Below, in pieces: positions 2,834 through 53,294 of a stretch of 63,719 nt of DNA. Position 1 is the stretch's first letter. Every line of letters begins with the position of its first letter. The notes below the pieces were generated by a model, which saw nothing but the letters and a program-made list of their open reading frames with translations, searched no databases and was not told the origin of the DNA. The stretch covers positions 1 to 63,719 of the IMG/VR virus record IMGVR_UViG_3300036851_000548, one strand, 5' to 3'. This stretch comes from a virus. Lineage: Duplodnaviria; Caudoviricetes. The translations under genes were made by a program, and so were the position numbers.

Positions 2834-3316
2834 CTAGCTGGCTGTCGCTCGGAAGAACCCGGACGCGTTCAGCTGCCAGATGATGTCGGTGCCGTCCGGG
2901 GTCACCGCGAAGTCGAGGCCGACGAGCGGGACGATCGTCGCGTCGGTTCCGACCGTGGTGTCCGGGTCGTAGCAGACGAGCAGCTTCCCCCACGCGCCCC
3001 CGGCGGCCGCGACGGCCGCCCAAGTCTGGTCTGGCATGTCGACCTCTGACTTGTCCGATCCGTCGGTGACGGTGATCACGATCCCGCCTGCCTGGTCGAT
3101 CACCTTGCGGGCGTAGCCGGTGTTCGTCGCCTCGTCGTTGGCTGCGGCGAGCAGGTCTGCGAGCGTGTCGTAGTCGCGGAGCGTCGCGTCGGGTTCGATC
3201 CCGGCGGCCTTGAGGATCACGATGACGAGCGCGGAGTTCGCCGGGTCGTTCGCGTTCACGCGTGCAGCGAGTTCGGAGACCCGGCCGGTCGCGATCGTGA
3301 AGACGAAGTCAGACAT
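2834..3316 (-). CDS. putative virion structural protein
   Basis: ATNTGYARK...VTPDGTDI sequence typical of actinophage minor structural proteins. Confidence 0.6.
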   Translation of the reverse strand: MSDFVFTIATGRVSELAARVNANDPANSALVIVILKAAGIEPDATLRDYDTLADLLAAANDEATNTGYARKVIDQAGGIVITVTDGSDKSEVDMPDQTWAAVAAAGGAWGKLLVCYDPDTTVGTDATIVPLVGLDFAVTPDGTDIIWQLNASGFFRATAS

Positions 3317-5321
3317 CGGTCACGTCCTCCTGCGTGTAGAGCGTCGACCCGTCCTCTAGCTTCTCTACGCGGACGACGCGCGGCTTCGGTGCCTCGATCG
3401 AGGCCGTGACGTGGACGGGGGCGGGCGGCTGCGCTGGCACCTCGTTGCGGACGATGACCTGCGCCTCTGACGGCGCGACCGTTATGGCCGGTGGCGGCTG
3501 CGCCGGTACGTTGACCGAAATCTGCGCGGGCGCCTGCGCGGGCACGTCGATCAGCGGCTCGACGCGGATCGCGCCGTCCGCGAGCGTGATGGGCGCGTCG
3601 ACGACGAGCGTGTCCGGCCCCTGACGCGCGACCGTGATGCCGGGCAGGTGGACGTTGAACGTCGGCGCGGGGTCGGCGGGCCTGCGTGCGAACTGTTCGA
3701 TCACGTCGAGCGCGCGGTGCGCGAACGCCGCGTCCTGCGACACAGGCTGCGCCGAGGCGGGCGGATCCGGGTCGGCCGGGATCTCGCCGAGCGGCTCCGC
3801 GGCGAGGGCGAGCACCTCGGCGAGCGCGGCGGCCTCGTCGGGGTCCCCGAGCGCGGCCGACCTGTAGACGACCTCCCACTCGTCGCCCTCGGGGAGCGCG
3901 GCCTCAGCCGAGGCTTCGACCCACTCGACGCCGTCGATGGCGAGGAACGCGGCGACGGCCGCGTCGTACTCGTCGTCGGTCGTCCAGTCGGCGGAGACCC
4001 AGGCGACGACGCCCTCGTCGGCGTTCCAGGCGGTGTCGCCGTAGCCGCCGTCCGGGGCGTGCATGGCGGCGACCTCGCCGATCTCGCGTCCCTTCGCGGT
4101 CTCCGCGACGACCGCCCCGGCGGTCAGCGACGCCGCCAGGTCTCGGGCGTCCTCCGGCTCGGGGTCGTCGGGCTGGTCGCGCTCGGGGAGCGGGTCCTCC
4201 TGGTCGCCCCGGAGCGCGTACATCTCCGCGACCGTCATCGGCACCTCGACGTCGCGGCCGAGCCACGCGGACGCCTCGTCCGGATCGAACGGCCCGAACG
4301 TCAGCTGCGACGCGCACCGGCCGGGGCGGCGGACAGCGGGCGTCAGCTCGCCGAGCTCGTCGTTCGTGGTGACGAGGCAGAGGACGCGGAGGCCCTGCCC
4401 GATCATCCCGTCGACGACGTTCAGGAGCCGGGAGAGGCCCTGCCCGTACTTCTCCTTCGCGTTCACGCTGAGGAGCTCGCCGGTGTCCTCCAGGATCAGC
4501 ACCCGCCACTTCCCCTCGGCGGCCTGCTCCTGGTAGACGTCGCCGGTCGTTGGCTCCATCACGTCGTAGGAGTCCGCGAGCAGCACGTCGATCATGTACG
4601 ACGGGTTGTCGACGAAGAACGAGTCCGGGTCTGTGATGTAGTGGAACTCCGCCCACGGCGCCCACTCGGACGCGAGCGCACGCAGCGCCCACGTCTTCCC
4701 CGTCCCCGGCGGGCCCTGCCAGAGCATCAGCTGCCCGTCGGCGCCGGGGCCGTCGTGCCACGCCATCACGCCGTCGAGTTCGCCGCGCACCTCAGCGGTG
4801 TAGTTCGAGGCGATCGGCTCCCACGGGGACGCGTCGATGCGGCGCAGCCGCGACTGCGGCCCGAACGGACCCATCGACCAGAAGGTGATCGCGACCCGCT
4901 CGTCCTCGATGTCGGAGAGGTACGAGGCGGGGTACCCGGCCCGGAACGCGGAGCAGGCGGCGTACGCGGCGGCGAGGTCGCGCGACGCGGCCTGGACGCT
5001 GAACCAGCCGCCGTGCAGGGACGCGTACGCGATCGTGCCGTCGTCGAGCCGCCAGATGGCGCAGTGGGAGCCGTCGTGGAACTCGGCCCCCGCCCCGTCG
5101 AGCGCGGCGACCTCGCACGGCCACTGCTCGGAGGCGAACTCCGTCAGCCCGGCGGCCAGCGCGGACTCGTAGAAGTGGCGCAGCGCGGGCGGCCCCTGCG
5201 TCATCTCGTAGGTGGCGAGGAGCGGGGCCGCGGCGGCGGTCAGCGACGACCGGAGTCCGCGGCGGCGGTCGGCCTCGCTGCGCGGGCGCCTGCGCGTCCC
5301 GGCGGTGACGGCGTGCCGCAC
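3309..5321 (-). CDS. AAA+ ATPase with acidic and Pro-rich C-terminal extension
   Basis: Walker A GPPGTGKT, Walker B LILED, sensor TTN, arginine finger RPGR; GTG start 2 nt after the protease stop. Confidence 0.8.
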   Translation of the reverse strand: MRHAVTAGTRRRPRSEADRRRGLRSSLTAAAAPLLATYEMTQGPPALRHFYESALAAGLTEFASEQWPCEVAALDGAGAEFHDGSHCAIWRLDDGTIAYASLHGGWFSVQAASRDLAAAYAACSAFRAGYPASYLSDIEDERVAITFWSMGPFGPQSRLRRIDASPWEPIASNYTAEVRGELDGVMAWHDGPGADGQLMLWQGPPGTGKTWALRALASEWAPWAEFHYITDPDSFFVDNPSYMIDVLLADSYDVMEPTTGDVYQEQAAEGKWRVLILEDTGELLSVNAKEKYGQGLSRLLNVVDGMIGQGLRVLCLVTTNDELGELTPAVRRPGRCASQLTFGPFDPDEASAWLGRDVEVPMTVAEMYALRGDQEDPLPERDQPDDPEPEDARDLAASLTAGAVVAETAKGREIGEVAAMHAPDGGYGDTAWNADEGVVAWVSADWTTDDEYDAAVAAFLAIDGVEWVEASAEAALPEGDEWEVVYRSAALGDPDEAAALAEVLALAAEPLGEIPADPDPPASAQPVSQDAAFAHRALDVIEQFARRPADPAPTFNVHLPGITVARQGPDTLVVDAPITLADGAIRVEPLIDVPAQAPAQISVNVPAQPPPAITVAPSEAQVIVRNEVPAQPPAPVHVTASIEAPKPRVVRVEKLEDGSTLYTQEDVTDV

Positions 5322-5323
5322 GG

Positions 5324-7780
5324 CTAACCGGCCACCCGGGCGGCGAGCGCCGCGACCCGCCCGTCGGCGGCGGCGCGAAGCGCGTCGATCCGGACGAGGT
5401 CTTCCTCGCTCAGGTGCTGCTCCTCGACGTGGATCCCGGCGGCGACGAGCGCGAGCACCTCCGCGCCCTCGTCCCCGGCCGCGACGAGCGCGCGGGCGCG
5501 CGGGACGGGGAACCCGGGGACGTTGACGGCGAGCAGCGCGACGAGCTCCAGGTTGCCGTCGACGTTCCGCCAGTCGCCGGAGAGGACGGCTCCGCGCAGG
5601 TCGCGGGCCTTCTCCGCGTCGATGTCGGGGCGGAGCGCCCCGGCGACCCAGATGCCGTGCTCGTCCTCGCCCACGGTCACGTCCGCGGCTGCGGTGCCGG
5701 TGTGGTCGTAGTGGGCGGTCGCGGCCTCGCTGCGGAGCCGCCGGTCGGCGTGCCCGGTGTCGAGCGTGATCGTGCCGCAGGGAACGGACTCGCCGCCCTC
5801 GCACTCGACCGCCTTCAGGAGGAAGTACGCGTAGTCGGTCTCGGACGTCGGCGCGGTCGTGCACACGTCGGGGATCCCGATGTGGCAGGTGTCCCAGGCG
5901 GCGGCGTGTCCGAACACCCGGCCGTCCTCGGTGACCGTCAGCGGCGACAGCCCCTCGAACGCGGGGTCCGCGAACCACTCGGCGGGGGGCCTGACCGGCG
6001 CGAGACCGGCGACGGACGCCGTCAGCGGCCCCGGATCCCCGGCGCGAGCGGCGACGCACGTGAACCCGGCCTGCTGCGTGACCGTGCAGATGGCCGGGCT
6101 GGCGGCGGAGACGAGCGACGCGGCCAGCTCGATCGTCGCGTCCGCGAACGCCTGGAACGGGCACACCGTGGTCGCGCCGATGACCGCCTCCGTGATGACG
6201 AAGATGGTGTCGTCGGCCTCGCCGCCGAAGAGGATGTCGAGCAGCGTCGGCTCCTCCTCGTCGGCGGACATCTCGCGGGGCGCCCAGTTGCCGTCCTCGT
6301 CGAACCAGTCGGCGCGCGGGCCGACCTCGTACTTGTGGATGGCGAGGTCGACGCTGACGCCGCGGAGGGTGCCCTCGCCGACCATGCGGGCGATCTCCCG
6401 GCCGTACTCGGCGTCGTCGAAGATCCCGGACGCGCGGACCATGTTCCCCTCCCGCCAGATCTCGTCGATGCGCCCGGCGACGAGCGCGCCGTTGTGGCCG
6501 CCCTCGGTCGTCTCGACCATCGCCATCAGCGTCAGCGGCAGCTCGCGCCACGTCAGCGCGCCCGGCGCGATGGCGCGTCCGTCGTCGGTCAGCGCCGCCT
6601 CGGGCACGATCGACGCGGTCCAGCGGACGGCCGCGAGGTCGGCGCCGGTGCGCTGCGCGGGCACGGGGACGTCGGGGGACGGGTTCGGGGAGGGCAGCGT
6701 CTCGCCGGGCGCGAGCTCGTCGGGCAGCACGACCTCGAACGTCTCGGGGACCCGGGGCAGTTCGATCGTGGAGGTGTCGACCTCGATCGTGAAGTCCTGG
6801 AGGCTCGCGCGGATCGCGGCCGCCAGCACCCCGCCGTCGGTGGTGTCGACCGGCGCGCCGCCGAGGGTGACCCCGGCGAGGAACTCCTCGACGCTCGCGG
6901 GGGCGATCGTGAACGTCAGCCTCTCCGGCGGGGCGAGCGTGAGTTCGACGCGCGGGTCGGCGGGCGTCGAGTCCTCGGTCGCCATCTCGGAGTAGCCGCC
7001 GCAGGAGCAGGTGCCGCGGCCGTCCTCGTGGCTGCACGGCCCGTCGGCGCCGGTGTGCTCGTCGAGGCTGTGCCCGCAGGAGCACTTCGGGTTGTGGAGC
7101 AGCGCTTCGGTGACCGCCGCGAGCGCGGCCCTCTCAGAGGTCGCGAACCCGTCCGCGAACGCCTCCCCGACCGCTTCCCCGGCCAGCGTGGCCTCGATCT
7201 CCTTGGCGCGGCGGGCGAACTCGGCCTGCTCCGCGCCGATCTCGTGGTCGGTCTCCCCGATGCCGGGTCCGAGTTCGGCCCGAGCGAGGAGCACGGCCGC
7301 GGCGCTGAGACCGATGGCCGCGGCGGCGGCCTCGTCCTCGGCGGACGCCTCCCACGGCGGCTTGATGCCGTCGTCGCCGTACTTCTTCGCGGCCTTGCGG
7401 TAGTAGGAGGCGATCCTCGACTTGACCCCGGAGACGTCGGCGGAGGGGATGCTGACCCCGCCGCGAGCGCCCTGCACGGCACCGGCCGCGGCGGTGACGC
7501 CCTTCCAGACGGCGGTGAGCGTCCCCCCGCTGTTCGAGGCGAACGGGAGCTTGTACGACGACAGCGCGTCCGCGTCTCCGTCCGGGTCGCGCCAGAAGTG
7601 CGCCTTTCCGTACTGGCCCTCCGACAGGCTCTTCTTGGCGGCCGACGCGTCCCATGACGCGTCGCGGTCCGACAGCGGCAGGCTAGTGGATCCCGAGGCT
7701 GCGGCGGTGAGGGTGTCGCCCTTCTCCAGGGCCTCGCGCTCTGCCCGGCGGCGGGCGAGGCGGCGGTCGCGTGCGTTCAT
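5324..7780 (-). CDS. capsid maturation protease / scaffold fusion
   Basis: GRIDEIWREG, GVSVD, GRVFGH, HYD, SGDWR and LAVNVPGFP motifs of actinophage prohead proteases; GAAGGAG RBS; follows portal and MuF. Confidence 0.75.
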   Translation of the reverse strand: MNARDRRLARRRAEREALEKGDTLTAAASGSTSLPLSDRDASWDASAAKKSLSEGQYGKAHFWRDPDGDADALSSYKLPFASNSGGTLTAVWKGVTAAAGAVQGARGGVSIPSADVSGVKSRIASYYRKAAKKYGDDGIKPPWEASAEDEAAAAAIGLSAAAVLLARAELGPGIGETDHEIGAEQAEFARRAKEIEATLAGEAVGEAFADGFATSERAALAAVTEALLHNPKCSCGHSLDEHTGADGPCSHEDGRGTCSCGGYSEMATEDSTPADPRVELTLAPPERLTFTIAPASVEEFLAGVTLGGAPVDTTDGGVLAAAIRASLQDFTIEVDTSTIELPRVPETFEVVLPDELAPGETLPSPNPSPDVPVPAQRTGADLAAVRWTASIVPEAALTDDGRAIAPGALTWRELPLTLMAMVETTEGGHNGALVAGRIDEIWREGNMVRASGIFDDAEYGREIARMVGEGTLRGVSVDLAIHKYEVGPRADWFDEDGNWAPREMSADEEEPTLLDILFGGEADDTIFVITEAVIGATTVCPFQAFADATIELAASLVSAASPAICTVTQQAGFTCVAARAGDPGPLTASVAGLAPVRPPAEWFADPAFEGLSPLTVTEDGRVFGHAAAWDTCHIGIPDVCTTAPTSETDYAYFLLKAVECEGGESVPCGTITLDTGHADRRLRSEAATAHYDHTGTAAADVTVGEDEHGIWVAGALRPDIDAEKARDLRGAVLSGDWRNVDGNLELVALLAVNVPGFPVPRARALVAAGDEGAEVLALVAAGIHVEEQHLSEEDLVRIDALRAAADGRVAALAARVAG

Positions 7781-7839
7781 GGTGCTCCTTCTGCAGGAGG
7801 GGGGAACGTATCGAGGCGGAACGCTAGCGCGGGGGGCGG

Positions 7840-10215
7840 CTAACCCTGGGCGATGCGTCTCCGGAGTGCGGCGATCCTGTCCTGCGCGGCATCGACCTCG
7901 GCTGTGGCACGCTTGACCGCGCGGTCGTCTTTTGCGCGTCTCGCCCTTGTCCGCTTCGCCCTCACTTCCGTGCTGTGTCCGAGGACGCGAGGGAGTTCCT
8001 TCCGCGCGTCCTCGGCCGACATGTCGGTGACGGGCGTCCGCGCGTAGTCGGGAAGGAGGTCGTCCGCGGCAGGGGGCGGCACGGCTCGCGACTCGGGGGC
8101 CGAGCGTACCGTCGGCTCCGGCACGGCTAGCCTTTCGAGCGGGTCTCGGTCGGCGGACGCGGCCCGCGGGGCCTTCTCGTCCAGCACGCGTGCCGCGCGG
8201 GGGTTCAGGATCACGACGACGCTCGGGTTGCCCTGCCACGTCGTCTCTATCGCGTCGTACCCGTCCTTCACCATGAGTTCCCTTGCGCGCTTGAGCGCGC
8301 CGTCGCGATCGAAAACGTCCTCCATCTCCCACGCCTTTTGGTCGTATCGGTTCAGGAAGTTGAGCAGCTTCTTGGAGTCGTCCTCGGCCTTGAACACCTT
8401 CCGGGCGTTCACCGCGATCTCCAGGTTCTCGCTGCCGTATCTGTCCTTGCGCGCTTTCTGCGGCGTCGTGTAGAGGCCGTGGCCGAGCCTGATGTTGACG
8501 GACTTAGAGGGGTCGAACCCGCTTGTTTTGATGCCGCGCGCCCCGGCGAGGTTCGTCTGGTGGAAGACGGTCGGGGTGTCCCCGTATGCGCTGCCCGCCG
8601 TCCAGTCCGCGACGTCGTCCGGGTGGATCACGGTCGCGGACGGCAGGTCGATAGTGCGGGCGGCGGAGGTGGTGCAGGAGACGTTGAGCATCTCGTCTGG
8701 GTCGGGGGCGCTCCACCCGGCCGGTCCAGCCGCGGTCAGGGACGCAGCGATCCCGACGAGTGCGGCTTCGACGCGCTGCGTGTCCTCGTGCCCGGCGGCG
8801 CACGGGTGGTTCCCTCCCGCGGACGCGGTGACGGCCTCGGGGTCCTGCGTGTACCCCATCGCGCAGCGGCAGTTGCAGACCTCGGCCGGTGGCCCGGACG
8901 GGTCGCCGGGGTGCTCCAGGGAGGCGCCACCGACGTCGAAGTAGCCGTCGAGGGCGCGCGTCTGGCCGTCCAGGCCCGCGTAGGTCGCGTGCCGCGGGTA
9001 CTTGGCGCCGCGGGCGGTCATCCACGTCTTGAAGAACGCCTCGCCGGTCGCCTCCGCGACGATCCGGGTCGCAGCGAGGCTGCCGCCGTTGACGGCCCCG
9101 GCCAGTTCGGTGCGGGCGATCAGGCGCGCGCGGGCGGGTGCGGCCTCCCTCATCTTCGCGCGGATCGCGGCGGCGGTGTCGTCGATCGAGAGGCCCTCCT
9201 CGTGCGCGGCCCGGATGACGCGCATCACGTCCAGCTGCGTCGTCAGGGAGATGTGCCCGATCTGGCTGGCGGACTGCGCGAGCACCCGCTGCGCGACCGG
9301 GTGCGTGACGTCGAAGGAGAGGCCGACCCCCTCCAGGCTGGCGCGCATCATCGTCCGGACGACCTCCTGCCGGACGGGGTCGGTGCGCGTCCGCAGCTGC
9401 GCCGGGAGGCAGTAGCGCTCCTCCCCAGCCGCCGCGAGCGACGCGGTCGCGGCGGGGCGCCCGACGAGCGGGACGGGGACGATCTCGGTGTCGCCGCGGA
9501 CGACGAGCAGGTCGTCGAAGTGGAGCGGCGACCCGGACAGCGGCAGCATCTTCTCCAGCTCGCCGGGTTCGGGGTCGCCGTCGACGGTGATGTGCGCCTC
9601 GAAGCCGTGGTCGCGGCTGTAGCCGACCCCGGCGTCGACGAGCGCCTCGGTGACGGCGACGCGGAGCTCGACCAGGCCGGGCACGTCGGGGAGCAGGATC
9701 CCGACGCTGGAACCGTCGGGCATCCCGAACTGGCCGTATCCGCCGACCTGCCCGGCGAGCGGGGCGTGCTCGGCCGCCACGGCGGCGAGCGCGTCCGCGA
9801 CGGGGCGGAGGTCGCCGTCGACCTCGCCGAGGTAGCAGAGCGTGACGTGGAGGTTCTCGGCGGGGCCGCCGTCAGGGTCGGCGATGGCGGCGGCCTCGTC
9901 GGGACGCGGCTTCACGGCGACCATCGTGGAGTTCGCCTTCACGTCGACGGCGGCGGTCAGCGACATCGAGGCGAGGAGCCGCCTCGCCTCCCGCATCCCC
10001 ATCTTCTCGGCGGCGCGGACGTCGGCGGCGCGCAGGCGGGCGGCGGCGGCGAGGTGGTCGACCGCGAGCGCGGAGAACGCGCGGGCGGCCTCGTCCCCGG
10101 CGCGTTCGAGCACCGGCTCCAGGATCCGGGCGAACTTCTCCTCCATCTCGCGCGCACGCCGCTCGCCCTGCCGGAGCACGGCGTTGTGGCGGGCGGCGGA
10201 GGGCGCGTCCGGCAT
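7840..10215 (-). CDS. MuF-like minor head protein fused to a 2H phosphoesterase and a C-terminal ADP-ribosyltransferase-like domain
   Basis: HVTL and HITV (two HxT motifs); RARLIARTE...KTW...HPGDPSGPPAEVCNCRC (MuF); FHQT...GHGLYTT...GYDAI (ART-like); TGATG overlap with portal. Confidence 0.75.
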   Translation of the reverse strand: MPDAPSAARHNAVLRQGERRAREMEEKFARILEPVLERAGDEAARAFSALAVDHLAAAARLRAADVRAAEKMGMREARRLLASMSLTAAVDVKANSTMVAVKPRPDEAAAIADPDGGPAENLHVTLCYLGEVDGDLRPVADALAAVAAEHAPLAGQVGGYGQFGMPDGSSVGILLPDVPGLVELRVAVTEALVDAGVGYSRDHGFEAHITVDGDPEPGELEKMLPLSGSPLHFDDLLVVRGDTEIVPVPLVGRPAATASLAAAGEERYCLPAQLRTRTDPVRQEVVRTMMRASLEGVGLSFDVTHPVAQRVLAQSASQIGHISLTTQLDVMRVIRAAHEEGLSIDDTAAAIRAKMREAAPARARLIARTELAGAVNGGSLAATRIVAEATGEAFFKTWMTARGAKYPRHATYAGLDGQTRALDGYFDVGGASLEHPGDPSGPPAEVCNCRCAMGYTQDPEAVTASAGGNHPCAAGHEDTQRVEAALVGIAASLTAAGPAGWSAPDPDEMLNVSCTTSAARTIDLPSATVIHPDDVADWTAGSAYGDTPTVFHQTNLAGARGIKTSGFDPSKSVNIRLGHGLYTTPQKARKDRYGSENLEIAVNARKVFKAEDDSKKLLNFLNRYDQKAWEMEDVFDRDGALKRARELMVKDGYDAIETTWQGNPSVVVILNPRAARVLDEKAPRAASADRDPLERLAVPEPTVRSAPESRAVPPPAADDLLPDYARTPVTDMSAEDARKELPRVLGHSTEVRAKRTRARRAKDDRAVKRATAEVDAAQDRIAALRRRIAQG

Positions 10216-12113
10216 CAGCCCAGGAGACCGGCGACGTAGTTCGTGAACGTCGAAGGAAGCGGGCCGGGCCGCTCCTGGTAGAGCGTGCGGACGGCGTGCT
10301 GCTCGACGGCCTGGACGACGCGCTCGACGAGGTCCTCGTCCGCGATGCCGTAGACGCGGAGCGCGTCCGCGATCAGGTCGCGGCACCCGGCCACGAGCGC
10401 GGCCTCGCTGCCGTTCAGGGAGCGGACGCGGTCGCGGCCGAGGATGGCGGCGACCTGGCCGGGCCGGACGCCGTCGATCGCCTCCAGCATCTTCGGGTCG
10501 CGCTTCGCGAGCGACCGGATCCGGTTTCCGGCGGCCTCGCGGGCGCGGAGCAGCGACAGGTCGGCGGCGCCGAGGACGCGCGCGACCGTCGCCGCGGAGA
10601 CGAGCGACGAGTCGTCGCGCTCGCCGGGCGGCTCGGGCGGCTCCTTCACGGCCTCCGCCGAGGAGGTGCCCGCGTCGATCGTGTCGTCGGCCGCGGTGGC
10701 GCGGCTCAGGTCCTCCTTGTCGCTGACGTGGCCGGTGACGGCGAGGACGCCGTCGTTGACGGCGACCCCGATCCGCCGCGTCATCTCGTCGGGGTCGGTG
10801 ATCGCGTCGCTGTCGTCGAACCCGGCGGCGTCGCGGAGGCTGGCGTCGCTGATCGCGAGCGACTTGTGCAGGTCCTTCGCGTCCTTCGTCCGGTCGGGGT
10901 GGTTGATGATCGCGGCGGCGTCGTAGCCGATGTAGAAGTCGCCCCAGTTCGTGACGCCGTCGGCCTTCAGCTGCGGCCGGAAGTACGCGGCGGAGAGGTC
11001 ATCGACGAGCTGCTGCGCCTTCGGCTGCAGGTGCCCCTTCCACGTCTGCTCGTCCACCTGCCACGCCGACCAGTGGTTCGCGTCGCCGAGGCCCATCAGG
11101 ATCTCGACGGGCATGTCGAGACCGATCGCGATCCGCTTGATGCACTCGTAGCGGAGGCCGGTCTCGGGGTACAGCTGCATCGGGTCGACGATCTGCAGGT
11201 GGTAGACGAGGTCCTTGACGGGGCGCGTCTCGTCGGTGGGCATCCGGACGACGAGGGGCACGACCGATGACGCGGCGCCCTCGTCGACGATCGGGGTCGT
11301 CATCGCGTCCACGAGGTCCTTCACGAACGGGTCGGCCTCAGGGTCCTCGTCGCCGACCGGCTCCGGCGGCGGCGGGCTGACTCGGTCGTCGATGAAGAGG
11401 ACGCCTGACCCGGCGAGCCTCGACTTCGCGCGCGCCCGCACCGACTGCGTCAGCAGGACGAGCTCCTCGCAGAGGTCGAGGACGCCCTGCATGGTCGAGT
11501 CCGCGAGCTGGGAGTAGCGCGGGTGCCGCTGCCAGAGCCTGTACGCGACCGCGTCGGTGTCGCCGACCGGCTCGAAGTCGGCCTCGCCGAGGTCCTTGTA
11601 GTTCTCGGCCTGCAGCGACGGCGCCTTCACGCGCAGGTACGTACCGCCCTGGATCCTCAGCTCGTCCGACGACAGCATCTCCCACTGCTCCATGTCGGTC
11701 TCGGGGTTCTTGGAGACGAACAGGATCGACTCGCCGGTCAGGAACATCAGCCGCCCGTAGGCGGAGAGGAGCGCGGTGCGGCCGCCGCCGGGGTCCTGCA
11801 CCCGCGCGAGCGCGTCGACGGCCTGCGGGTCGTCGGTCTCGACCAGCTCGCCGTCCTTCATCACGGCGGGGAAGAGCCGCAGCTGCGAGAGGCCGCGCGA
11901 GTAGAACTGCGCCGCGTACTTGATCTCGCCGAGCATGTCGTAGTAGGCGAACGCGCGCGACTGCCACGGCTGCACGAGGCGGCGGACGTCGTCGCCCTGC
12001 TTCTTCGCGTTGACGCGGGCGCCGGACGCCGTGAGCGCGTTCGCGCTCCTGTAGGCGGACGCGCCCGGGTTCAGGATCCGGGAGGCGGGCGGCCGTCGGC
12101 GGAGGATCGCCAC
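10215..12113 (-). CDS. portal protein
   Basis: WQSRAFAYYDMLGEIKY, RIAIGLDMPVEILMG and NHWSAW motifs of actinophage portals; 632 aa; upstream of MuF. Confidence 0.85.
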   Translation of the reverse strand: MAILRRRPPASRILNPGASAYRSANALTASGARVNAKKQGDDVRRLVQPWQSRAFAYYDMLGEIKYAAQFYSRGLSQLRLFPAVMKDGELVETDDPQAVDALARVQDPGGGRTALLSAYGRLMFLTGESILFVSKNPETDMEQWEMLSSDELRIQGGTYLRVKAPSLQAENYKDLGEADFEPVGDTDAVAYRLWQRHPRYSQLADSTMQGVLDLCEELVLLTQSVRARAKSRLAGSGVLFIDDRVSPPPPEPVGDEDPEADPFVKDLVDAMTTPIVDEGAASSVVPLVVRMPTDETRPVKDLVYHLQIVDPMQLYPETGLRYECIKRIAIGLDMPVEILMGLGDANHWSAWQVDEQTWKGHLQPKAQQLVDDLSAAYFRPQLKADGVTNWGDFYIGYDAAAIINHPDRTKDAKDLHKSLAISDASLRDAAGFDDSDAITDPDEMTRRIGVAVNDGVLAVTGHVSDKEDLSRATAADDTIDAGTSSAEAVKEPPEPPGERDDSSLVSAATVARVLGAADLSLLRAREAAGNRIRSLAKRDPKMLEAIDGVRPGQVAAILGRDRVRSLNGSEAALVAGCRDLIADALRVYGIADEDLVERVVQAVEQHAVRTLYQERPGPLPSTFTNYVAGLLG

Positions 12114-12365: not shown

Positions 12366-12803
12366 CTACGCCGTGCCCGGCGGGTCCTTCAGACCGAGTC
12401 GGGGGGCGGGGCGCTCCCCGACCGTGAGCGTCCCCTGCAGCGCCCGCGCCCCGGCGGCTGCGGCTCCGACGATCGCGGCCGTCAGGAGCGCGCGGACGGC
12501 GGCGAGGTCGGGGGCCTCCAGCGCACCGGGAAGCGTGATCAGGAGCGAACTCAGGAAGCCGTGCAGGTACGAGTCGGCCCATTCGCCGTAAGGGTCGACG
12601 ATCCAGTGGCGGACGGAGAGCTGCGGGACGAACACCTGGACGGCGCGGATCCCGGCGGCGGTGGACGCGAGCAGCGCGGCCAGGCCGAGCGACCGCATCG
12701 CTTGCAGGTCGGGGGCGGCGAGGACGCCGGGGGCGAAGACGACGAGGGCGCCGACGAACACGCGCAGGAACGCGCGGCCGGTGGCGGAGAGCAGGGAGCG
12801 CAT
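12366..12803 (-). CDS. holin-like membrane protein with an internal duplication
   Basis: four hydrophobic helices in two similar halves (APDLQAMRSL / APDLAAVRAL); GGAGG RBS. Confidence 0.55.
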   Translation of the reverse strand: MRSLLSATGRAFLRVFVGALVVFAPGVLAAPDLQAMRSLGLAALLASTAAGIRAVQVFVPQLSVRHWIVDPYGEWADSYLHGFLSSLLITLPGALEAPDLAAVRALLTAAIVGAAAAGARALQGTLTVGERPAPRLGLKDPPGTA

Positions 12804-12986
12804 GACGTGGCCTCCAGGTTCGGTGTCGCCTCGAACGGTAACGCGGCTGGCGGCTGGTGTTGCGGCGGGTTCCCTCGGCGCAGGGCCGTCCCGCCGTCTT
12901 TCAGCGATGGTCTTACGCCCTCGCCGTGCTCCCCGAGCGCCGTCCGGGAGGCGGGTCGACGGACCGCCTTGGGGTCATCTATCGGA

Positions 12987-13062
12987 TAGCACCGGCGGGA
13001 TTCGAACCCGCGACCTCCGCGTTATGAGCGCGGCGAGATGGGCCTGGCTTCTCCACGGTGCG
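12987..13062 (-). tRNA. tRNA-Met(CAT), initiator-like
   Basis: full cloverleaf: acceptor CGCACCG/CGGTGCT with C1xU72 mismatch, D stem GAGA/TCTC, anticodon arm CCGCG-CTCATAA-CGCGG, T arm GCGGG-TTCGAAT-CCCGC; CCA not encoded. Confidence 0.92.
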
Positions 13063-13067
13063 GGCGC

Positions 13068-13090
13068 ATCGTAGCGCGGCGGGCGGACGG
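13068..13090 (-). promoter_or_regulatory. CCGTCCG-N10-TACGAT promoter motif for the tRNA
   Basis: -10-like hexamer ends 5 nt before tRNA base 1. Confidence 0.7.
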
Positions 13091-13136
13091 TGGCCGGGCT
13101 GGGCGGTCCCCCGGCCGCCGTCCTGGGCGCCGCCCG

Positions 13137-13304
13137 CTACTCGGCGTCCGGCTCGGCCTCGTCGCCGTCGCCCGGCTCGCCGTCCGCGGCGGGGTCGTCC
13201 GCGCCCGCCCCGGCTTCGTCGTCGGCGGTCGTCTCGGGGTCGGCGCCGGTGCCGCCGTCGCCGTCGCCGCCGGACTGCGTCTCGTACATGATGTCGCTCT
13301 TCAA
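13137..13304 (-). CDS. small acidic low-complexity protein
   Basis: AAAGGAG RBS before TTG; D/G/E-rich. Confidence 0.5.
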   Translation of the reverse strand: MKSDIMYETQSGGDGDGGTGADPETTADDEAGAGADDPAADGEPGDGDEAEPDAE

Positions 13305-13363
13305 GGCGACTCCTTTCGGTTGGGTGGCGCCGAGCCTATACCCGCCCGAGGGGGAAGGGAAGC

Positions 13364-13843
13364 CTACGGGTCGAGGTTCCGGGCGAGGAGTCCGACGGCT
13401 CCGGAGAGCGCGAACGGCGCGATCAGCCAGAGCGTCCACGCTGGCGTGAGGTTCCAGCTCGCGTAGGCGGCGAGGCTGACCCACCAGCCGAGGCAGAACG
13501 GGCAGTGGACGAGGTGCGCGAGCGTCGGCCGGTCGTACGCCGGACGCACGTCGCTCACCTCAGACGGCGGCTGCTTCCCCGGCAGGCCGAGGTCGGGAGC
13601 TTCGGCCGGGAGGTCGTCCTGCGTGATCCCAGTGCGCTCAAGCCGCGCCTCGGTCAGCTCGGAGAACTCGCGCTCGACGAACTCGACCTGCACCGGCTGA
13701 GTCGTGACCCAGCGCTCGCCGATCGCCCACTGGCGGACGCGGAGGATCGGGGGCCAGTCGTCCCAGCCGAGGAAGCGGGTGATGCGGTAGCAGCCGAACG
13801 CGAGGACGATCGCGTGCCACGGGTCGGGGATCGCGACGTCCAC
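13364..13843 (-). CDS. DUF1360-like membrane protein
   Basis: YRITRF...DD and LVHCPFCLGWW motifs; commonly found near actinophage portal genes. Confidence 0.75.
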   Translation of the reverse strand: MDVAIPDPWHAIVLAFGCYRITRFLGWDDWPPILRVRQWAIGERWVTTQPVQVEFVEREFSELTEARLERTGITQDDLPAEAPDLGLPGKQPPSEVSDVRPAYDRPTLAHLVHCPFCLGWWVSLAAYASWNLTPAWTLWLIAPFALSGAVGLLARNLDP

Positions 13844-13845
13844 GG

Positions 13846-14064
13846 CTATCGGTCCTCGACCGGCACGCCGAGGTAGACGCCGAGGCAGCGGGCGACGTCG
13901 CGGGCTTCCTGCTCGTACGCGTTGCTGAACAGGATGCGCTCGCACCAGCCGTAGTCGGCGACCACGCCGAAGAGCGGCGTCGCGTGGCCCTCGGGCGTGA
14001 AGTCGCACACGATGAACTTCTCCGGAGCCTTGCCTTCGTGCTCTAGCGGGTTGGGTCGCGCCAT
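13846..14064 (-). CDS. hypothetical protein
   Basis: GAGGAG RBS; tight gene packing. Confidence 0.55.
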   Translation of the reverse strand: MARPNPLEHEGKAPEKFIVCDFTPEGHATPLFGVVADYGWCERILFSNAYEQEARDVARCLGVYLGVPVEDR

Positions 14065-14075
14065 GGTTGCTCCTC

Positions 14076-14288
14076 TCAGGTGATGTCGGCCGCGTTCGGG
14101 TCGTCGCGGGCTATCGCGATCAGCCAGCCTGCCGCCCACAGGAGCAGGGGGACGGCGATCCAGAGCTCGGCTGGCCCTTCGATCGCCAGGAACGTGAACA
14201 CGAGCGCCGCCAGCGCCGCGACGAGTCCGGCGACGAACAAGCGCCTGCTGTAGACGGTGATGCTGAGGACTGTGCTGGTCTCGATCAT
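14076..14288 (-). CDS. small membrane protein
   Basis: two TM segments; ATGA overlap. Confidence 0.55.
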   Translation of the reverse strand: MIETSTVLSITVYSRRLFVAGLVAALAALVFTFLAIEGPAELWIAVPLLLWAAGWLIAIARDDPNAADIT

Positions 14289-15181
14289 GTTGCCTCCTTC
14301 TCGTTGAACCACTCGGCCGTCATGGCCAGACCTTCCTCGATCGTCGTCGCCGGTGCCCAGCCGAGCGCGGCGATCCTGTCGATGTTCGCGAGCAGGAACG
14401 GCGGCTCTCCCCCGCGTCCGTGTTCGAAGCGCACCGGCGCGCCCAGCATGTCGGCGACCTCGCGGGGGCTGCGCGCGGAGCCGGAGCCGACGTTGAGGAC
14501 GTGGATCCCGTCGAGCGCGAGCAGGTGCGCGTGCGCGGCGGCGAGGTCGCCCACGTAGACGAGGTCGCGCCTCTGCTCGCCCCGATTGTAGAGCGGCGCT
14601 GGCTCGCCCGTCGCGGCCGCCCGGATCAGCGCGGGCACGAGGTGCGTCTCAGGCCTGTGGTTCTCGCGGGGTCCGTACGGGTTGAAGTAGCGGAGCGAGC
14701 AGGCGTCCCACCCATAGGTGCGAGCCCACCCGAGGATCAGGTCCTCGGCAGCGAGCTTCGTCGCGGCGTACGGGGACGCCGGGGCCGCCGGGGCGTCCTC
14801 GGGGATCGGCCCGTCCGCAGACGCGAACCCGTACACGGCAGCGGTCGAGCTGTAGATGATCCGGCCGCACCCGGCCTCGCACATCGCGGCGAGGAGCGCC
14901 GCCGTGCCTCGCACGTTGGTCTCGAAGTACCCGCCGGGGTGCGCGCAGCTCTCCGGCACCGACGTCCTCGCGGCGAGGTGGACGACCGCGTCGACGTCGC
15001 AGTAGGCGGGAGCGAGGTCGGCGAGCGCGACCTGCGAGAAGGCGTCGATGTCCGCCCAGGCGTCCTCAAGCCGCGACGCGCTCAGGTCATCGACGACCTT
15101 CACCGAGTGGCCGTCGGCTTTCAGCGCAGCCGCGACGTGCTGGCCGACGAACCCCATGCCGCCCGTGACGAGGACCCTCAT
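14285..15181 (-). CDS. NAD-dependent epimerase/dehydratase (UDP-glucose 4-epimerase-like)
   Basis: TGGMGFVG Rossmann motif, SSTAAVYG, YAATK catalytic motif, LRYFNPYG. Confidence 0.9.
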   Translation of the reverse strand: MRVLVTGGMGFVGQHVAAALKADGHSVKVVDDLSASRLEDAWADIDAFSQVALADLAPAYCDVDAVVHLAARTSVPESCAHPGGYFETNVRGTAALLAAMCEAGCGRIIYSSTAAVYGFASADGPIPEDAPAAPASPYAATKLAAEDLILGWARTYGWDACSLRYFNPYGPRENHRPETHLVPALIRAAATGEPAPLYNRGEQRRDLVYVGDLAAAHAHLLALDGIHVLNVGSGSARSPREVADMLGAPVRFEHGRGGEPPFLLANIDRIAALGWAPATTIEEGLAMTAEWFNEKEAT

Positions 15182-15945
15182 GCGCCGGGGGCGGGGTCGT
15201 AGATCAGCGTCTCGTCGGCGGCGGGGTCCTCGCGCCAGAACCACGTCCGGAAGTGCTCCAGGACGGCCTCGTCGGTGGCTCCCTGGAACATGCGCCAGTG
15301 CGCGCCGACGCTCGGATCCATGCCGGTGGCGGCGTAGGCGCGCTCGCCGTTCCGGATCTTGCGGAGGTACTGCTCCGGGCTGCGCCAGCTGTAGTGGCGG
15401 ATGACGAGGCCGGACGAGGTCACCCCGGTGCCTGGCGCCCAAGCGGAGTGGTTGCCCATCCGGATCTCCAGGCCGGGGCGGGCGCGGCAGCAGACCTTGC
15501 CGAGCGCGCCGTGCTCGCGCTGCCTCCACCCGATCCGCAGGAACGGCGACGGCTCGTCGGCGGGATCGAGCGCGGACGGTATGTGGTTGTAGAGGTCGGC
15601 GGTAACGAACGCGACGTCGGGAGCGAGTCCGGCGAGGAACGCGGCGAGGGTGCGGCCGTCGGGGGCGTACCAGTACTCGTCGGCGTCGCAGGGGATGACC
15701 CAGTCGAAGCCGCGGGCAAGCGCGTGCGCCGCGAGGTCGCTCGTCTTGCGGTCCTGGTAGTAGCCGACCTCGGGGTCGTCGATGACCTGCAGCGGCCCGC
15801 CGATAGCGCGGAGGACGTCGCGGGTGCCGTCGGTCGAGCCGTTGTCCGAGACGATCACGTAGTCGACCTGCCCGAGCAGGTGCCGGACGGTGTGCCCGAT
15901 GATGTCGGCCTCGTCCTTGACCAGCATGACCGCGCAGACGCTCAT
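15178..15945 (-). CDS. glycosyltransferase family 2
   Basis: VKDEAD, DNGSTDGT, CDADE. Confidence 0.88.
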   Translation of the reverse strand: MSVCAVMLVKDEADIIGHTVRHLLGQVDYVIVSDNGSTDGTRDVLRAIGGPLQVIDDPEVGYYQDRKTSDLAAHALARGFDWVIPCDADEYWYAPDGRTLAAFLAGLAPDVAFVTADLYNHIPSALDPADEPSPFLRIGWRQREHGALGKVCCRARPGLEIRMGNHSAWAPGTGVTSSGLVIRHYSWRSPEQYLRKIRNGERAYAATGMDPSVGAHWRMFQGATDEAVLEHFRTWFWREDPAADETLIYDPAPGA

Positions 15946-16629
15946 TCTCCGTGCCTCGGGTCGTGCGGCTCCGGCTCGACCAGTGAGTACCTCCGCAGGA
16001 GCCAGTCGCCGAGGCGCCCCGTCCACGGCTGGTCTCCGAGCCAGACGAGCGGGTCGCTGAGAGGCCGGATACCGGCAGCCTTGAAGGCGAGGAGCATGCG
16101 AGCGATCGCGAGACCGAGCGTCGTGCCGAAGATCGCGGCGACGAGCGCGTCCTCTCGCCGTACGGCGATCACGACGAGGGCGACCACCAAGATCACGTTG
16201 AGCGCGCAGACCGACAGCGTCAGGCGGTGATAGGCGCTCACCCGTGCACCGTATCGCGCAGGGGGCGGAGGCGTCCGCCGGGGTCGTGCGTCGCCCTGTC
16301 CCATGTCGAGTTGCAGAGGCAGACGTACTGGCGGATCTCGCCGCCGTGGTTGCGCCTGTTGGACGGGTGCCACGGGCAGTTCGGCTTGTGCTCTGGTTCC
16401 TTCGGCTGGCTAGCGGCGCGGCGCGGCCGGGCTCCGGCGCGGCTCACGGTCGTCCCTCGGTGACCTTGCTGGAGTGGATCGCCATCGAGTGCAGGCCGTC
16501 GGCGTCGTGCCACTCGATTCCGAGACAGTCGCCCTCCCGGCCCCAGATGCGGACGGTCGTGCCCGCCTTCAGCACCGACCCGGATTCAAGCTGCACGTCC
16601 CGGCGGACGATTGCCGTCTCGGGGGTCAC
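15942..16629 (-). CDS. three small coupled hypothetical genes (15942-16241 membrane; 16238-16447; 16444-16629)
   Basis: GTGA overlaps between consecutive ORFs. Confidence 0.5.
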
Positions 16630-31097: not shown

Positions 31098-32513
31098 CTA
31101 TCGCCTCGTCCGGATCGTCTCCAGGCGGTCGCCGACGCGCGGGATCCGGCCCTGCGGGACGCTGGAGGTGCCGCGGCGACCGGCGGCGCGGCCGGTGATC
31201 GCGTTGTGCGCGCCGGAGAGCGCGTCGACGCAGTCGTCCTTCGCGCCGTTCGGGAAGATCGAGACCTCGTCGAGGAACTCCAGCAGGTTCGGACACGTCT
31301 CCATGATCTGCACCAGCCCGTTGCCGACGGCGGCGGCGACGGGGCGCGCCCTGACCTCCTTCGCTGCGTTGGCGCCCTGGATCCTCGTCAGCCCCTCGTG
31401 GCACGCGAACCCCTGCAGCACCCGGCGCTTGTAGTTCGCGAGCTGCGCCTTCCCCGCCTGCCCGGGGTCCCTCTCGACGTAGACGGGGACGGCGCGGCCG
31501 TCCTCCTCGGCGGTGCGGCGGACGGTCTGCTCGACCCTGTCGTCCTGCCAGCGGCCCCGGACGATGTGGCGGACGGTGAAGGTGCCGTTTGCGTCGACCT
31601 CGTAGCGGAGCCCGACGGTCCAGTCGGGGTCGGGGTAGGCGGCGGACACCTCGCTCCCGGCGAGGTCCCAGTAGCGGAGCGACGACACGGCCGGGGCGAC
31701 CTCGTCGGGTGCGACGATCCGGAAGTCGTCCCGCTTGAACTTGCCGCCCTCCTCGGTCACGTCCCAGTCGCCGTCGATCAGCCGCTGCCGGTCGATCGGC
31801 GAGAGGTGCGCGAGCGATAGCAGGTAGGCGTCATAGTCGAGGTGCGGGTTGTCGTGGATCGTGGCGGGCACGAATACCGCCTGCGGGTCGCGGGTCGCGC
31901 GCTCGATGAAACGGCTCTTCACCCACTGGTGCCCGATGTCGCCCGGGTTGGACGCGGACCGCATCCGCAGAGGGATCTCGTCGAGGTAGCCGCCCTTCGC
32001 CTGCCGCAGGACGCGGAACATGGCGCGGTAGAGGCCCTCGGGGAACGACGTCAGCTCGTCGAAGCCGCAGAACGAGTACGACGGCCCCTTGTAGATCTTC
32101 ACGTCGGCGGGGGTGGCGAGGTACCCGAACCGGATGCTCGCGCCAGACGGGAACGTCCAGGAGCGCTTGGTGCCGTTCCAGTAGGCGTCGCTCGTGTCGA
32201 GCCAGTCGTGCGACGCCTCGATCAGGCCGCCGGGCTGCTCGAACTCGCCGAGGCTGGGGCGGAGCAGCAGCCCGTGGTAGCCGGGCACGTCGACGTACTG
32301 AAGCGAGGCCATCAGCAGCCCGTACGACTTGCCCGGCCCCGCTGCGCCTCCGAAGAACGCCTCCAGTTCGTCGCGGCGGAGGTACCACTCCTGCTTCGGC
32401 GTCGGCTCCAGCGGGCAGTAGGCGCGGGGAAGGCGGAGCGGTCCGAGCGCCTCCTCCAGCGTCTCCCAGGCGACGTCGTCGAGGTCGGCGGCGGCGAGGT
32501 CGAGGACGGTCAC
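31098..32513 (-). CDS. terL: terminase large subunit
   Basis: FGGAAGPGKS Walker A, FDE Walker B, SASNP motif C, YWDLA and DDCVDALSGA nuclease motifs. Confidence 0.92.
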   Translation of the reverse strand: MTVLDLAAADLDDVAWETLEEALGPLRLPRAYCPLEPTPKQEWYLRRDELEAFFGGAAGPGKSYGLLMASLQYVDVPGYHGLLLRPSLGEFEQPGGLIEASHDWLDTSDAYWNGTKRSWTFPSGASIRFGYLATPADVKIYKGPSYSFCGFDELTSFPEGLYRAMFRVLRQAKGGYLDEIPLRMRSASNPGDIGHQWVKSRFIERATRDPQAVFVPATIHDNPHLDYDAYLLSLAHLSPIDRQRLIDGDWDVTEEGGKFKRDDFRIVAPDEVAPAVSSLRYWDLAGSEVSAAYPDPDWTVGLRYEVDANGTFTVRHIVRGRWQDDRVEQTVRRTAEEDGRAVPVYVERDPGQAGKAQLANYKRRVLQGFACHEGLTRIQGANAAKEVRARPVAAAVGNGLVQIMETCPNLLEFLDEVSIFPNGAKDDCVDALSGAHNAITGRAAGRRGTSSVPQGRIPRVGDRLETIRTRR

Positions 32514-32770
32514 AGCGGCCTCCGGCCGCCGCGGCGGACCCACCCGGTGATCCCGCGCGAGCGCGGCGTGCGCCGCACCGTCCGGGGCGCGGACGCGTAG
32601 ACGGCCCGCAGGACGCGCACGGGCGTCCCTGTGGGACGGATGGCGCGCGCGAGGTGCCAGCGGTCGCGCTCGATGTTGTCGGGGAAGAACGGCCCCTGGC
32701 GCCACAGGGCGGCAAACGACAGGTTGAAGAGGGTCGCATCGACCGTGGCGACAGGCAGCGTGCCGGTCAT
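32510..32770 (-). CDS. hypothetical protein
   Basis: coupled to both neighbours. Confidence 0.45.
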   Translation of the reverse strand: MTGTLPVATVDATLFNLSFAALWRQGPFFPDNIERDRWHLARAIRPTGTPVRVLRAVYASAPRTVRRTPRSRGITGWVRRGGRRPL

Positions 32771-51887: not shown

Positions 51888-53294
51888 CTACGAGGAGGCG
51901 GGTCGGGCGCGGCCGTGTGCGAACGCGTAGTCCGAGATCCGCGCCAGCGACGTCTCGTGGCTCGCAGGGTCGTTCTCGATCCCGACGAACCGGAACCCCT
52001 CCATCATCGCCGCACAGCCGGTCGTGCCGCTCCCGAGGAACGGGTCGAGCACCAAGCCGCCCGGCGGGGTGACGAGCCTGACGAGGTGCCGCATCAGTTC
52101 GATCGGCTTCACGGTCGGGTGGAGATTCCTGGTCGTGCCGCCGATCCGTTCGCGGCGGCGCGGCTTCGCGATGTAGAAGAACCTGGCGGCTCCGCCGTCG
52201 TCCGCGTCCGCCTCGTTCAGTTCCGCGACGGGACAGCCTGGCGCGCACAGCGTGGCCGTGTGCCGGGCGCCGTTGCCCTCGCAGTCGGGGAGGTGCGCGA
52301 GCAGCACGTTCGCGGGCCAGCGCCCGGCGTCGACGGCCTCCCTGACGGTCGCGCTCGGCGGGAAGTCGGTCGCGCCGTCCGTCTTCCCCTTGGGCCGCTC
52401 GACGGCGTGCGAACCCGGCTCCCCGCCGGGGCGGGCGGCGTCGATGTTGAGCGCGCCGGTTCCGTACGCGAGCACGGTCTCGGTGACGGTCCCCGCGAGC
52501 GGCTTCCGGGCCATGACGATCGGCTCGTGCGCGGGCTTCAGCGCGGTGCCCCAGCCGTCCCACTGCTGCGCCTCTGGCGTCACGGGGGTGCCCTTCGCGA
52601 TCGGCGCCTTCGTCGGAGAGAACACCTCGTTGCCGCCGTAGTCGGACACGACCCGGTCGGGCCGTTCGGCACCGGCGCTCTTATCGATCTGCTTCGACAC
52701 GTCGAGGCTCTTCGGGAACCCCGACCCGTAGATCCAGTGGAGGCTGTCGCGGATCTCGAACCCGGCGTCCTCGACCCCGGCGGCGAGCCGGTGGTACATG
52801 CGGGTCGCGCCGAACGCGAGGAGGTGGCCGCCGGGCTTCAGGACGCGGTACGCCTCGGCCGCCCACGCCTTCGAGAACTGCTCGAACGCGAGCACGTCCG
52901 GACTCGCCCCGGCGTAGGAGGGGACCGCGCGCCAGTCGGCCTTGTCGCCGCACTTGTGCGGGTTCCGGAACGCGTCCCGCTTCCCGCACGTCTGGCACTG
53001 GTAGGAGGTGCGGCGCCCGCCGAACGACGGCAGCTTGCCGTGCTTCGCGTCGCCGGGGTCGCCCCAGTTCGACTTCGACGGGTCGGCGCGCTCGGCGTTC
53101 GCCCAGCGCGGGTGCATCTCGACCTCGTCGTGGGGGATGAACCTGTCCCAGTCGCGGCCCATGAACTCGATGCCGTAGGGCGGATCGGTCACGACCGCGT
53201 CGACGGACTCGTCGGGGAGCGTGGCCATCACGGCGATGCAGTCGCCGAGCAGGATCCGCGCGTCGGGAGGGGCGGCGCGGCGGGGCCTAGCCAT
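51888..53294 (-). CDS. amino-DNA methyltransferase, paralog of 34874-36412
   Basis: TDPPY, YGSGFPKS, HPTVKP, VLDPFLGSGTT. Confidence 0.92.
   Translation of the reverse strand: MARPRRAAPPDARILLGDCIAVMATLPDESVDAVVTDPPYGIEFMGRDWDRFIPHDEVEMHPRWANAERADPSKSNWGDPGDAKHGKLPSFGGRRTSYQCQTCGKRDAFRNPHKCGDKADWRAVPSYAGASPDVLAFEQFSKAWAAEAYRVLKPGGHLLAFGATRMYHRLAAGVEDAGFEIRDSLHWIYGSGFPKSLDVSKQIDKSAGAERPDRVVSDYGGNEVFSPTKAPIAKGTPVTPEAQQWDGWGTALKPAHEPIVMARKPLAGTVTETVLAYGTGALNIDAARPGGEPGSHAVERPKGKTDGATDFPPSATVREAVDAGRWPANVLLAHLPDCEGNGARHTATLCAPGCPVAELNEADADDGGAARFFYIAKPRRRERIGGTTRNLHPTVKPIELMRHLVRLVTPPGGLVLDPFLGSGTTGCAAMMEGFRFVGIENDPASHETSLARISDYAFAHGRARPASS

Follow-up and report, generated by a model that had tools for sequence, protein, structure and literature searches.

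What does a phage head protein do when its MuF core is flanked by two enzyme-like domains? The question is raised by a gene in the virus record IMGVR_UViG_3300036851_000548 of IMG/VR (an uncultured phage; Duplodnaviria; Caudoviricetes), which was analysed over its whole length of 63,719 bases (72% G+C, estimated 72% complete; hereafter, the window). The gene occupies positions 7840..10215 on the minus strand and encodes a predicted polyvalent MuF-type minor head protein of 791 amino acids, followed by a stop codon. From the N-terminus, a 2H phosphoesterase domain, a MuF core and a divergent ADP-ribosyltransferase (ART) fold were assigned. The protein is probably a polyvalent MuF head protein in which a LigT/ThpR-like 2H module and a His-Tyr-Asp (H-Y-D) ART module would both act as enzymes in the newly infected cell.

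An earlier note, made from the sequence alone, had described a MuF head protein with a 2H phosphoesterase before the core and an ART-like domain after it. The five motifs on which it relied (HVTL, HITV, FHQT, GHGLYTT and GYDAI) were all located where it had put them, and each of the three domain assignments was borne out by the evidence given below. Coordinates of the protein's features are given on the minus strand throughout.

The 2H phosphoesterase domain

The LigT/ThpR/CPDase-like 2H domain spans residues 95-252 (9460..9933). Its first H-x-T motif, HVTL, is at residues 123-126 (H123, T125; 9838..9849) and its second, HITV, at residues 208-211 (H208, T210; 9583..9594). Over residues 114-222, PF13563 scored 32.7 bits (cut-off 27) and PF02834 scored 27.3 bits (cut-off 23.3). 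A six-frame search of the record returned a single 2H place, with 35.1 bits. H123, T125, H208 and T210 were invariant in 31/31 aligned sequences.

Residues 1-470 were modelled with AlphaFold2 from 31 sequences, with a mean predicted local distance difference test score (pLDDT) of 83. The best VIA-align match of the 2H model was Deinococcus drCPDase (5h7e; Z 16.6, 2.7 Å over 156 residues), which was also matched by Foldseek (E 3.3e-5). Thermus TT0787 (1iuh, Z 15.6), 1vdx (Z 15.5) and E. coli LigT (Z ~14) came close behind, and AKAP18, Usb1 and the rotavirus VP3 2'-5' phosphodiesterase were matched at Z ~12.5. LigT/ThpR, drCPDase and TT0787, the best structural matches (143-157 residues, ~20% identity), each carry two H-x-T motifs. 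They are free-standing cellular enzymes of ~180 amino acids, whereas the 2H domain in the window is part of a predicted virion protein.

The earlier note had tied the 2H domain to the anti-CBASS nuclease Acb1 (CBASS, an antiphage signalling system based on cyclic oligonucleotides). If so, the module would be a virion-preloaded nuclease degrading CBASS-type cyclic oligonucleotides. The Acb1 of T4 and of Erwinia phage FBB1 has a 2H fold (PMC9117128, available text), the model aligned to its structures 7t26 (Z 10.1) and 7t27 (Z 9.8), and Foldseek gave it an E of 6.4e-3. Both are phage-encoded 2H folds with a possible action on nucleotide signals. A role of this kind is predicted for 2H-MuF fusions in the available text of Iyer et al. 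2017 (PMC5512222) and 2022 (PMC9503650), and the family-wide invariance of the catalytic motifs points to selection on catalysis. However, 37 PDB entries outranked Acb1 (7t26 was at rank 38): LigT/ThpR/CPDase entries came first, at Z 14-16.6, followed by AKAP18, Usb1 and viral 2'-5' phosphodiesterases. The alignment to Acb1 covered 130 residues at 18% identity. In the available text of PMC9117128, Acb1 is also compact, stands alone and has a lid at its C-terminus, whereas the 2H domain in the window is fused to MuF. Within the 2H superfamily the substrate is not fixed by fold alone, a point that bears directly on the Acb1 reading.

On the modelled structure, the domain is a LigT/ThpR-type 2H enzyme whose likeness to Acb1 is limited to the shared fold. 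A specific link to Acb1 was thus not supported, and a preloaded Acb1-like nuclease is unlikely. Of the fold likenesses that the earlier note had put forward for comparison, those to LigT and to ARTs were recovered, and the one to Acb1 proved generic. Since the domain is nearest to LigT/ThpR/CPDase proteins and resembles Acb1 only generically, the degradation of cyclic nucleotides is one of several possible activities.

The sole name offered for the protein by a cluster look-up was "2'-5' RNA ligase" (JGI). Among cultured phages, only weak 2H relatives were found (nine records, all <37% identity), in genes annotated as RNA ligase or capsid maturation protease. Proteins in the BFVD rows A0A9E7E548, A0A649VPI5 and A0A7T1KS78 and in the phage matches H31-H39 resemble the 2H part. 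Among the phage proteins matching it are large Gordonia and Arthrobacter proteins labelled "RNA ligase" (550-1102 amino acids) and a Microbacterium "capsid maturation protease". What labels of both kinds conceal is probably a 2H domain joined to a structural protein.

The idea of 2H-MuF and ART-MuF effectors is already in print (Iyer et al. 2017, PMC5512222, and 2022, PMC9503650, in their available text). In the first of these, 2H domains are described as joined to MuF or portal domains, with no case of an association with RNA ligases, and the fusions are proposed to be RNases or to degrade nucleotides in nucleotide-activated defence. The proposal is repeated in the second, where many Alt/VIP2- and N4-type ARTs are reported fused to MuF. 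Like those fusions, the protein in the window carries a 2H domain on a MuF protein beside a portal gene, with no RNA ligase nearby, and is predicted to be packaged and injected. It differs in having a third module, the H-Y-D ART, and a unique basic tail. The terms phosphoesterase, LigT and RNA ligase do not occur in the main text of Jamet et al. 2017. In the literature searched, no experimental test of the role predicted for 2H-MuF proteins in 2017 was found.

The MuF core and the N-terminal region

The MuF / head-morphogenesis core, between the 2H and ART domains, covers residues 281-464 (8824..9375) and has a CNCRC motif at its end (residues 447-451). It was matched by phrog_2468 (E 2e-35). 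Over query residues 297-539, tblastn matched 732 phage records; of the 30 matches listed, most are annotated as MuF-like minor capsid or head morphogenesis protein. Fold matches for the core were also returned from BFVD. Directly upstream, and adjoining the MuF gene in the head module, is the portal gene (10215..12113, minus; phrog_776, E 3e-99).

The helical N-terminal region (residues 1-90; 9946..10215) is conserved in the family, with R20, E25, L36, A43 and F47 invariant. The N-terminal 95 amino acids had no match below E 0.09 in PHROGs and no family match of their own. An origin of the 2H domain by insertion into a longer MuF protein was considered as a possibility.

The ART-fold domain

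The ART-fold domain spans residues 525-680 (8176..8643). Its proposed triad is H552, in FHQT (residues 551-554; 8554..8565), Y582, in GHGLYTT (residues 578-584; 8464..8484), and D654, in GYDAI (residues 652-656; 8248..8262). The three residues fall at predicted strands that match the published H-Y-D order: in the available text of Iyer et al. 2017 (PMC5512222), polyvalent-protein ARTs have their His, Tyr and Asp in strands 1, 2 and 5, respectively, and are grouped with Tox-ART-HYD2.

Relatives of the domain are few. A word-indexed search with the ART region alone returned only the self-match, and tblastn of the domain against 50,697 phage records gave no match. When 1.84 billion representatives were searched exhaustively with phmmer, 13 other relatives of the ART domain were found at E<=1e-3. 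One of them, P0125, matched through its residues 227-347 (E 3.3e-5), and the same stretch is PF18760 (ART-PolyVal) at 40.4 bits (cut-off 31.2). Ten of the 13 relatives were scanned against Pfam. PARP rows were obtained for five (P0122 and P0131 strong, P0124 just above the cut-off, two below it) and ART-PolyVal rows for four; two had no family at all, and one matched only a zeta toxin family, in another part of the protein. Across 14 trimmed and aligned ART domains, 12 retained the His, and every one had both the Tyr and the Asp (GYD). Y582 and D654 were likewise invariant (12/12) in alignment A2.

The AlphaFold2 model of the domain reached pLDDT 79 and a predicted template modelling score of 0.77. 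Its Foldseek matches (E 4e-5 to 2e-3) were PARP4 (3.9e-5), tankyrases, PARP10/12/15 and AcrIF11 (4.3e-4). A wide VIA search gave Z >= 5.1 throughout rows 1-31 and 33, and all of these but row 1 were titled as ART-superfamily chains. Row 1, 9k3a_B (Z 8.9), is a cyanophage A4 pre-ejectosome chain whose title names the pre-ejectosome only; an ADP-ribosyl or ART domain is not mentioned in the searchable text of the cyanophage A4 paper (PMC12002296). ESM Atlas rows for the domain name ART-PolyVal, PARP and AcrIF11_ADP_ribosyl clusters. A search of PDB sequences with the A2 profile gave weak PARP3/10/12/16 rows (E 0.03-0.8) amid ribosomal-protein noise, which are suggestive only.

Several results weigh against the reading of the protein set out here. 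For the ART domain, PF18760 gave no direct match even at E<=10, with a six-frame search included. Two of the five AlphaFold2 models were poor (pLDDT 52.5 and 50.6), from an alignment of only 12 sequences, and the template modelling (TM) scores to PARP structures were modest (0.35-0.46). VIA Z-scores of ~7-8 are common for models without clear relatives, and those obtained here for tankyrase (7.5), exotoxin A-like and diphtheria-toxin-like chains (~7) and AcrIF11 (6kyf, 6.5) have to be read with this caution. The position of the PARP-type catalytic Glu is not conserved. The tentative placing of D654 in the triad follows the published description of H-Y-D ARTs and the strand order predicted for the model. 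For the MuF core, PF04233 (MuF) reached 23.6 bits, under its cut-off of 29.6. For the 2H domain, the ThpR equivalog TIGR02258 reached 30.5 bits, far under its cut-off of 65.7, and the domain is therefore not an ortholog of housekeeping ThpR.

The ART assignment was made because the sequence, motif and fold evidence agree, no single score being decisive. With moderate scores, the C-terminal domain is a divergent, ART-PolyVal-related H-Y-D ART fold. By its sequence it is placed as a divergent side branch of the ART-PolyVal (PF18760) / Tox-ART-HYD2 clade, whose members share the H-Y-D triad and their occurrence in virion-associated multidomain phage proteins. AcrIF11 (6kyf; PF26151) is likewise a small phage protein with an ART fold and ADP-ribosylates a CRISPR subunit; it stands alone, whereas the ART domain in the window is fused. 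ARTs attached to or packaged with head proteins, to be delivered at infection, include, in the available text of the sources, the EFV toxin (E. faecalis V583 prophage), the Alt/VIP2- and N4-type ART-MuF proteins and T4 Alt. The domain in the window is of the H-Y-D type, whereas Alt/VIP2 ARTs are assigned to the R-S-E clade (Iyer et al. 2017, PMC5512222, available text).

One or both of the enzyme-like domains could instead lack catalytic activity and have a structural or binding role in the head. The missing PARP-type Glu would fit this, as would the missing Gly of the H-G-S/T motif (FHQT here), the two ART relatives that lack the His, and the pseudo-PARP domains (TASOR, PARP13) among the ART fold matches. 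Set against these are the two H-x-T motifs, unchanged throughout the aligned 2H sequences, and the Tyr and Asp, present in every aligned ART relative; moreover, the active site published for polyvalent-protein ARTs has the H-Y-D configuration (Iyer et al. 2017, PMC5512222, available text). There is only a small chance that either domain is dead.

Family and modular build

The whole protein has 164 relatives at E<=1e-5, and the family counts below refer to the 120 of these that were listed. PF13563 or PF02834 was found in 118 of them. Thirty-nine are shorter than 560 amino acids and end after the MuF core. Longer ones carry varied cargo: PF06414 zeta toxin (12), PF03496 ADPrib_exo_Tox (7), PF12294 (3), and PF00583, PF07737 and PF18796 in single cases. 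A hidden Markov model (HMM) of the window's ART domain, built from the window protein and P0006 among others, detected the domain in three only (the window protein, P0006 and P0026). P0006 is 49% identical over residues 9-678 and stops right after the ART domain.

The 2H-MuF base is thus constant and the ART type of the window is rare, so the 2H and ART domains are not a dedicated or obligate pair. The earlier note had proposed a dual effector. Two enzyme-type domains do stand on one protein, as it had said; the idea of a dedicated pair was not upheld. Two unrelated effector-type domains, 2H and ART, on one MuF protein correspond to the polyvalent arrangement of Iyer et al., and the build of Jamet et al., in which the MuF part is constant and the toxin-type domain at the C-terminus varies, is also present in the family.

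In P0017, P0019, P0021 and P0052, CNCRC is near the C-terminus and extra sequence lies between the 2H and MuF parts; in P0019 this extra sequence goes together with a PF03496 ART. For this reason, cargo appears able to sit in the middle of the protein as well as at its end.

The absence of an obligate pair bears on a reading in which the protein repairs RNA. The 2H domain would heal 2',3'-cyclic phosphate ends left by host defence RNases, and a KptA/Tpt1-like ART would act on the 2'-phosphate. The nearest 2H structures are indeed 2',3'-cyclic phosphodiesterases and LigT, and a 2H-to-KptA pathway is described in section 3.7.3 of PMC9503650. Pfam gave nothing significant on the last 291 amino acids of the protein, with a faint PF01885 Tpt1/KptA match at residues 547-610 (E 0.18, 12.3 bits). 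In structure, however, the ART model matched Tpt1 at Z 3.2-4.0 only, whereas PARP, toxin-type and phage ARTs reached 6-9. Searches of the record, at 72% completeness, gave neither RNA ligase (PF09414) nor RtcB (PF01139), and 2H versions are stated never to be associated with RNA ligases in the available text of Iyer et al. 2017 (PMC5512222). The window's ART type is, besides, rare among 2H-MuF relatives. RNA repair by the two domains is distinctly unlikely.

The variable C-terminal domains bear on a further reading, in which the protein is a MuF polymorphic toxin (Jamet et al. 2017) and its ART is used by a lysogen as an antibacterial toxin against competitors. Of the 191 MuF toxins in that survey, 14% were putative ARTs and 89.4% had a small ORF (open reading frame) after them; among MuF toxins, only the EFV toxin, which is ART-active, had been studied (Jamet et al. 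2017, available text). The build and the zeta toxin and ADPrib_exo_Tox domains of the relatives agree with this reading. The downstream region does not: the MuF gene is followed by a 59-bp intergenic gap (7781..7839) and then by a gene that starts at 7780, has its ribosome-binding site (AAGGAG) within the gap and encodes an 818-amino-acid protease fusion protein. No ORF was found within the gap, and it offers no space for an immunity gene, as the earlier note had observed. Macro and ADP-ribosylglycohydrolase (ARH) antidotes were not found in the record at 72% completeness. Nor was tyrosine integrase PF00589, which is weak evidence at this completeness; serine integrases were not searched. Of the readings considered, an antibacterial toxin of a lysogen has the smallest chance of being correct.

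Eighteen related viral loci were compared. Portal homology was found upstream in 12 and protease homology downstream in 10, and the MuF ORFs ranged from ~470 to ~2,460 amino acids. The spacing between the MuF and protease genes ranged from <100 bp (the window and L012) to >1 kb (L005, L008/L009, L010 and L015), and varied in short and long MuF forms alike. Small ORFs in these gaps could not be distinguished from chance ORFs in GC-rich DNA. A contig profile scan with alignment A1 gave one weak locus only (L002, 43 residues matched).

Linker motifs and the C-terminal tail

A linker motif, [LVI]TA[AS], was found at domain boundaries of the protein, at residues 85-89 (9949-9963) and 492-496 (8728-8742). 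At a third boundary (residues 259-264; 9424-9441) a degenerate SLAAAG is present. Among relatives the motif is kept at the 2H/MuF boundary in 29/31 and at the first boundary in 15/31. The second copy opens a junction element, SLTAAG...W-SAP-DPDE, between the MuF core and the cargo (residues 492-512; 8680..8742). In relatives, [LVI]TA[AS] is followed by a W-x-A-P...E...DV element. Most have this junction between the 2H and MuF parts; in the window protein and P0006 it stands after the MuF core.

Two proteins are enriched for the motif: the MuF protein has 3 copies where 0.32 are expected (a number reached in 3/1000 shuffles), and the protease fusion protein has 3 where 0.41 are expected (9/1000 shuffles). 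In the latter it is at residues 24, 95 and 586, and the portal protein has it at residue 27. It was absent from seven of the nine other record proteins tested; the second helicase has one copy, and two unassigned ORFs that may be structural have none. The linkers may be cleavage sites of the head protease, which would be an attractive explanation.

Behind the ART domain, residues 686-791 (106 amino acids; 7843..8160) form a Pro/Ala-rich linker and a very basic, probably helical end. No relatives of this tail were found among the small proteins, stored proteins and loci searched, and PHROGs gave nothing below E 0.09. It is missing from P0006 and P0026, both of which end just after the ART domain. 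The tail was also considered as a former immunity gene that had become fused, which is unsupported since no relatives of it were found.

Gene start and neighbourhood

The ORF as listed runs over 7840..10386 (minus). The ATG at 10215 was chosen as the start because it overlaps the stop codon of the portal gene (TGATG) and because 30 relatives align from about residue 3-10 of its product. Third codon positions have a G+C content of 0.93 across the ORF and of 0.80 in its final 92 codons, which makes the entire frame look coding. The gene order is portal, MuF, protease. The head maturation protease fusion protein downstream (5324..7780, minus) was matched by phrog_18402, phrog_859 and phrog_29860.

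Other phage genes in the record encode a large terminase, two helicases and two DNA methyltransferases. The gene that comes next after the protease gene, at 3312-5204 (minus), encodes a 631-amino-acid AAA ATPase (PF00004 and PF19347 DUF5925; phrog_33861); an AAA protein is unusually placed in a head module. The large terminase gene is ~19 kb upstream of the portal gene (positions concerned, 12369-16026 and 31101-32705, minus), and the portal-proximal part of the interval between them holds a tRNA-Met (12987-13062) and genes for a DUF1360 protein, an NAD-dependent sugar epimerase and a family 2 glycosyltransferase. The two methyltransferase genes (phrog_67) are at 36412-38286 and 51891-53294 (minus) and suggest anti-restriction by self-methylation. 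A 584-amino-acid protein (55513-57264, minus), encoded far from the real terminase, gave a weak second match of the terminase large subunit type (phrog_2666, E 4e-12).

Proposed mode of action

As a polyvalent MuF head protein, the product would be placed inside the capsid by its MuF core, which would bind the portal, and would leave the capsid with the DNA. Both steps are proposed by homology with SPP1 gp7 and Mu F, whose head placement and exit are described in the available text of Jamet et al. 2017 and Iyer et al. 2017 (PMC5512222). Once in the new host, the 2H and ART modules would do their work ahead of any phage gene expression. The target of the 2H module would be a phosphodiester, hydrolysed either in a small nucleotide or in the end of an RNA. 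Its candidate substrates are ranked with immune nucleotide signals or 2'-5' linkages first, followed by the processing of RNA 2',3'-cyclic ends and then by an Usb1-like RNase activity. The ART module is expected to modify a host macromolecule with NAD+, in the manner of T4 Alt and AcrIF11. An immunity gene would not be needed, because the protein would be made late in a cell about to lyse. T4 Alt is not known to have an immunity gene either. The domain folds, the catalytic motifs with their conservation, the gene order and the modular build of the family are shown by the data; packaging, ejection, both activities and both substrates we infer.

A more specific version is speculative, and we regard it as doubtful. 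In it, the 2H-MuF phosphodiesterase would be preloaded in the virion and, at DNA entry, would destroy immune signals or undo damage by RNases. It would be teamed with an ART that disables a defence or transcription protein, and the [LVI]TA[AS] linkers would be cut by the head protease to leave free enzymes in the capsid. Acb1-type anti-defence enzymes are normally made after infection has started, and one carried in the capsid from the outset would take effect earlier.

The protein is an expected member of the described polyvalent / MuF-effector class rather than a system of a new kind. As judged from its sequence, what is unusual in it is the rare ART cargo, invisible to Pfam, and the tail for which no relatives were found. 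The 2H-MuF family to which it belongs is large (at least 164 relatives) and its catalytic motifs are strictly conserved, and the window protein is a compact candidate for its study.

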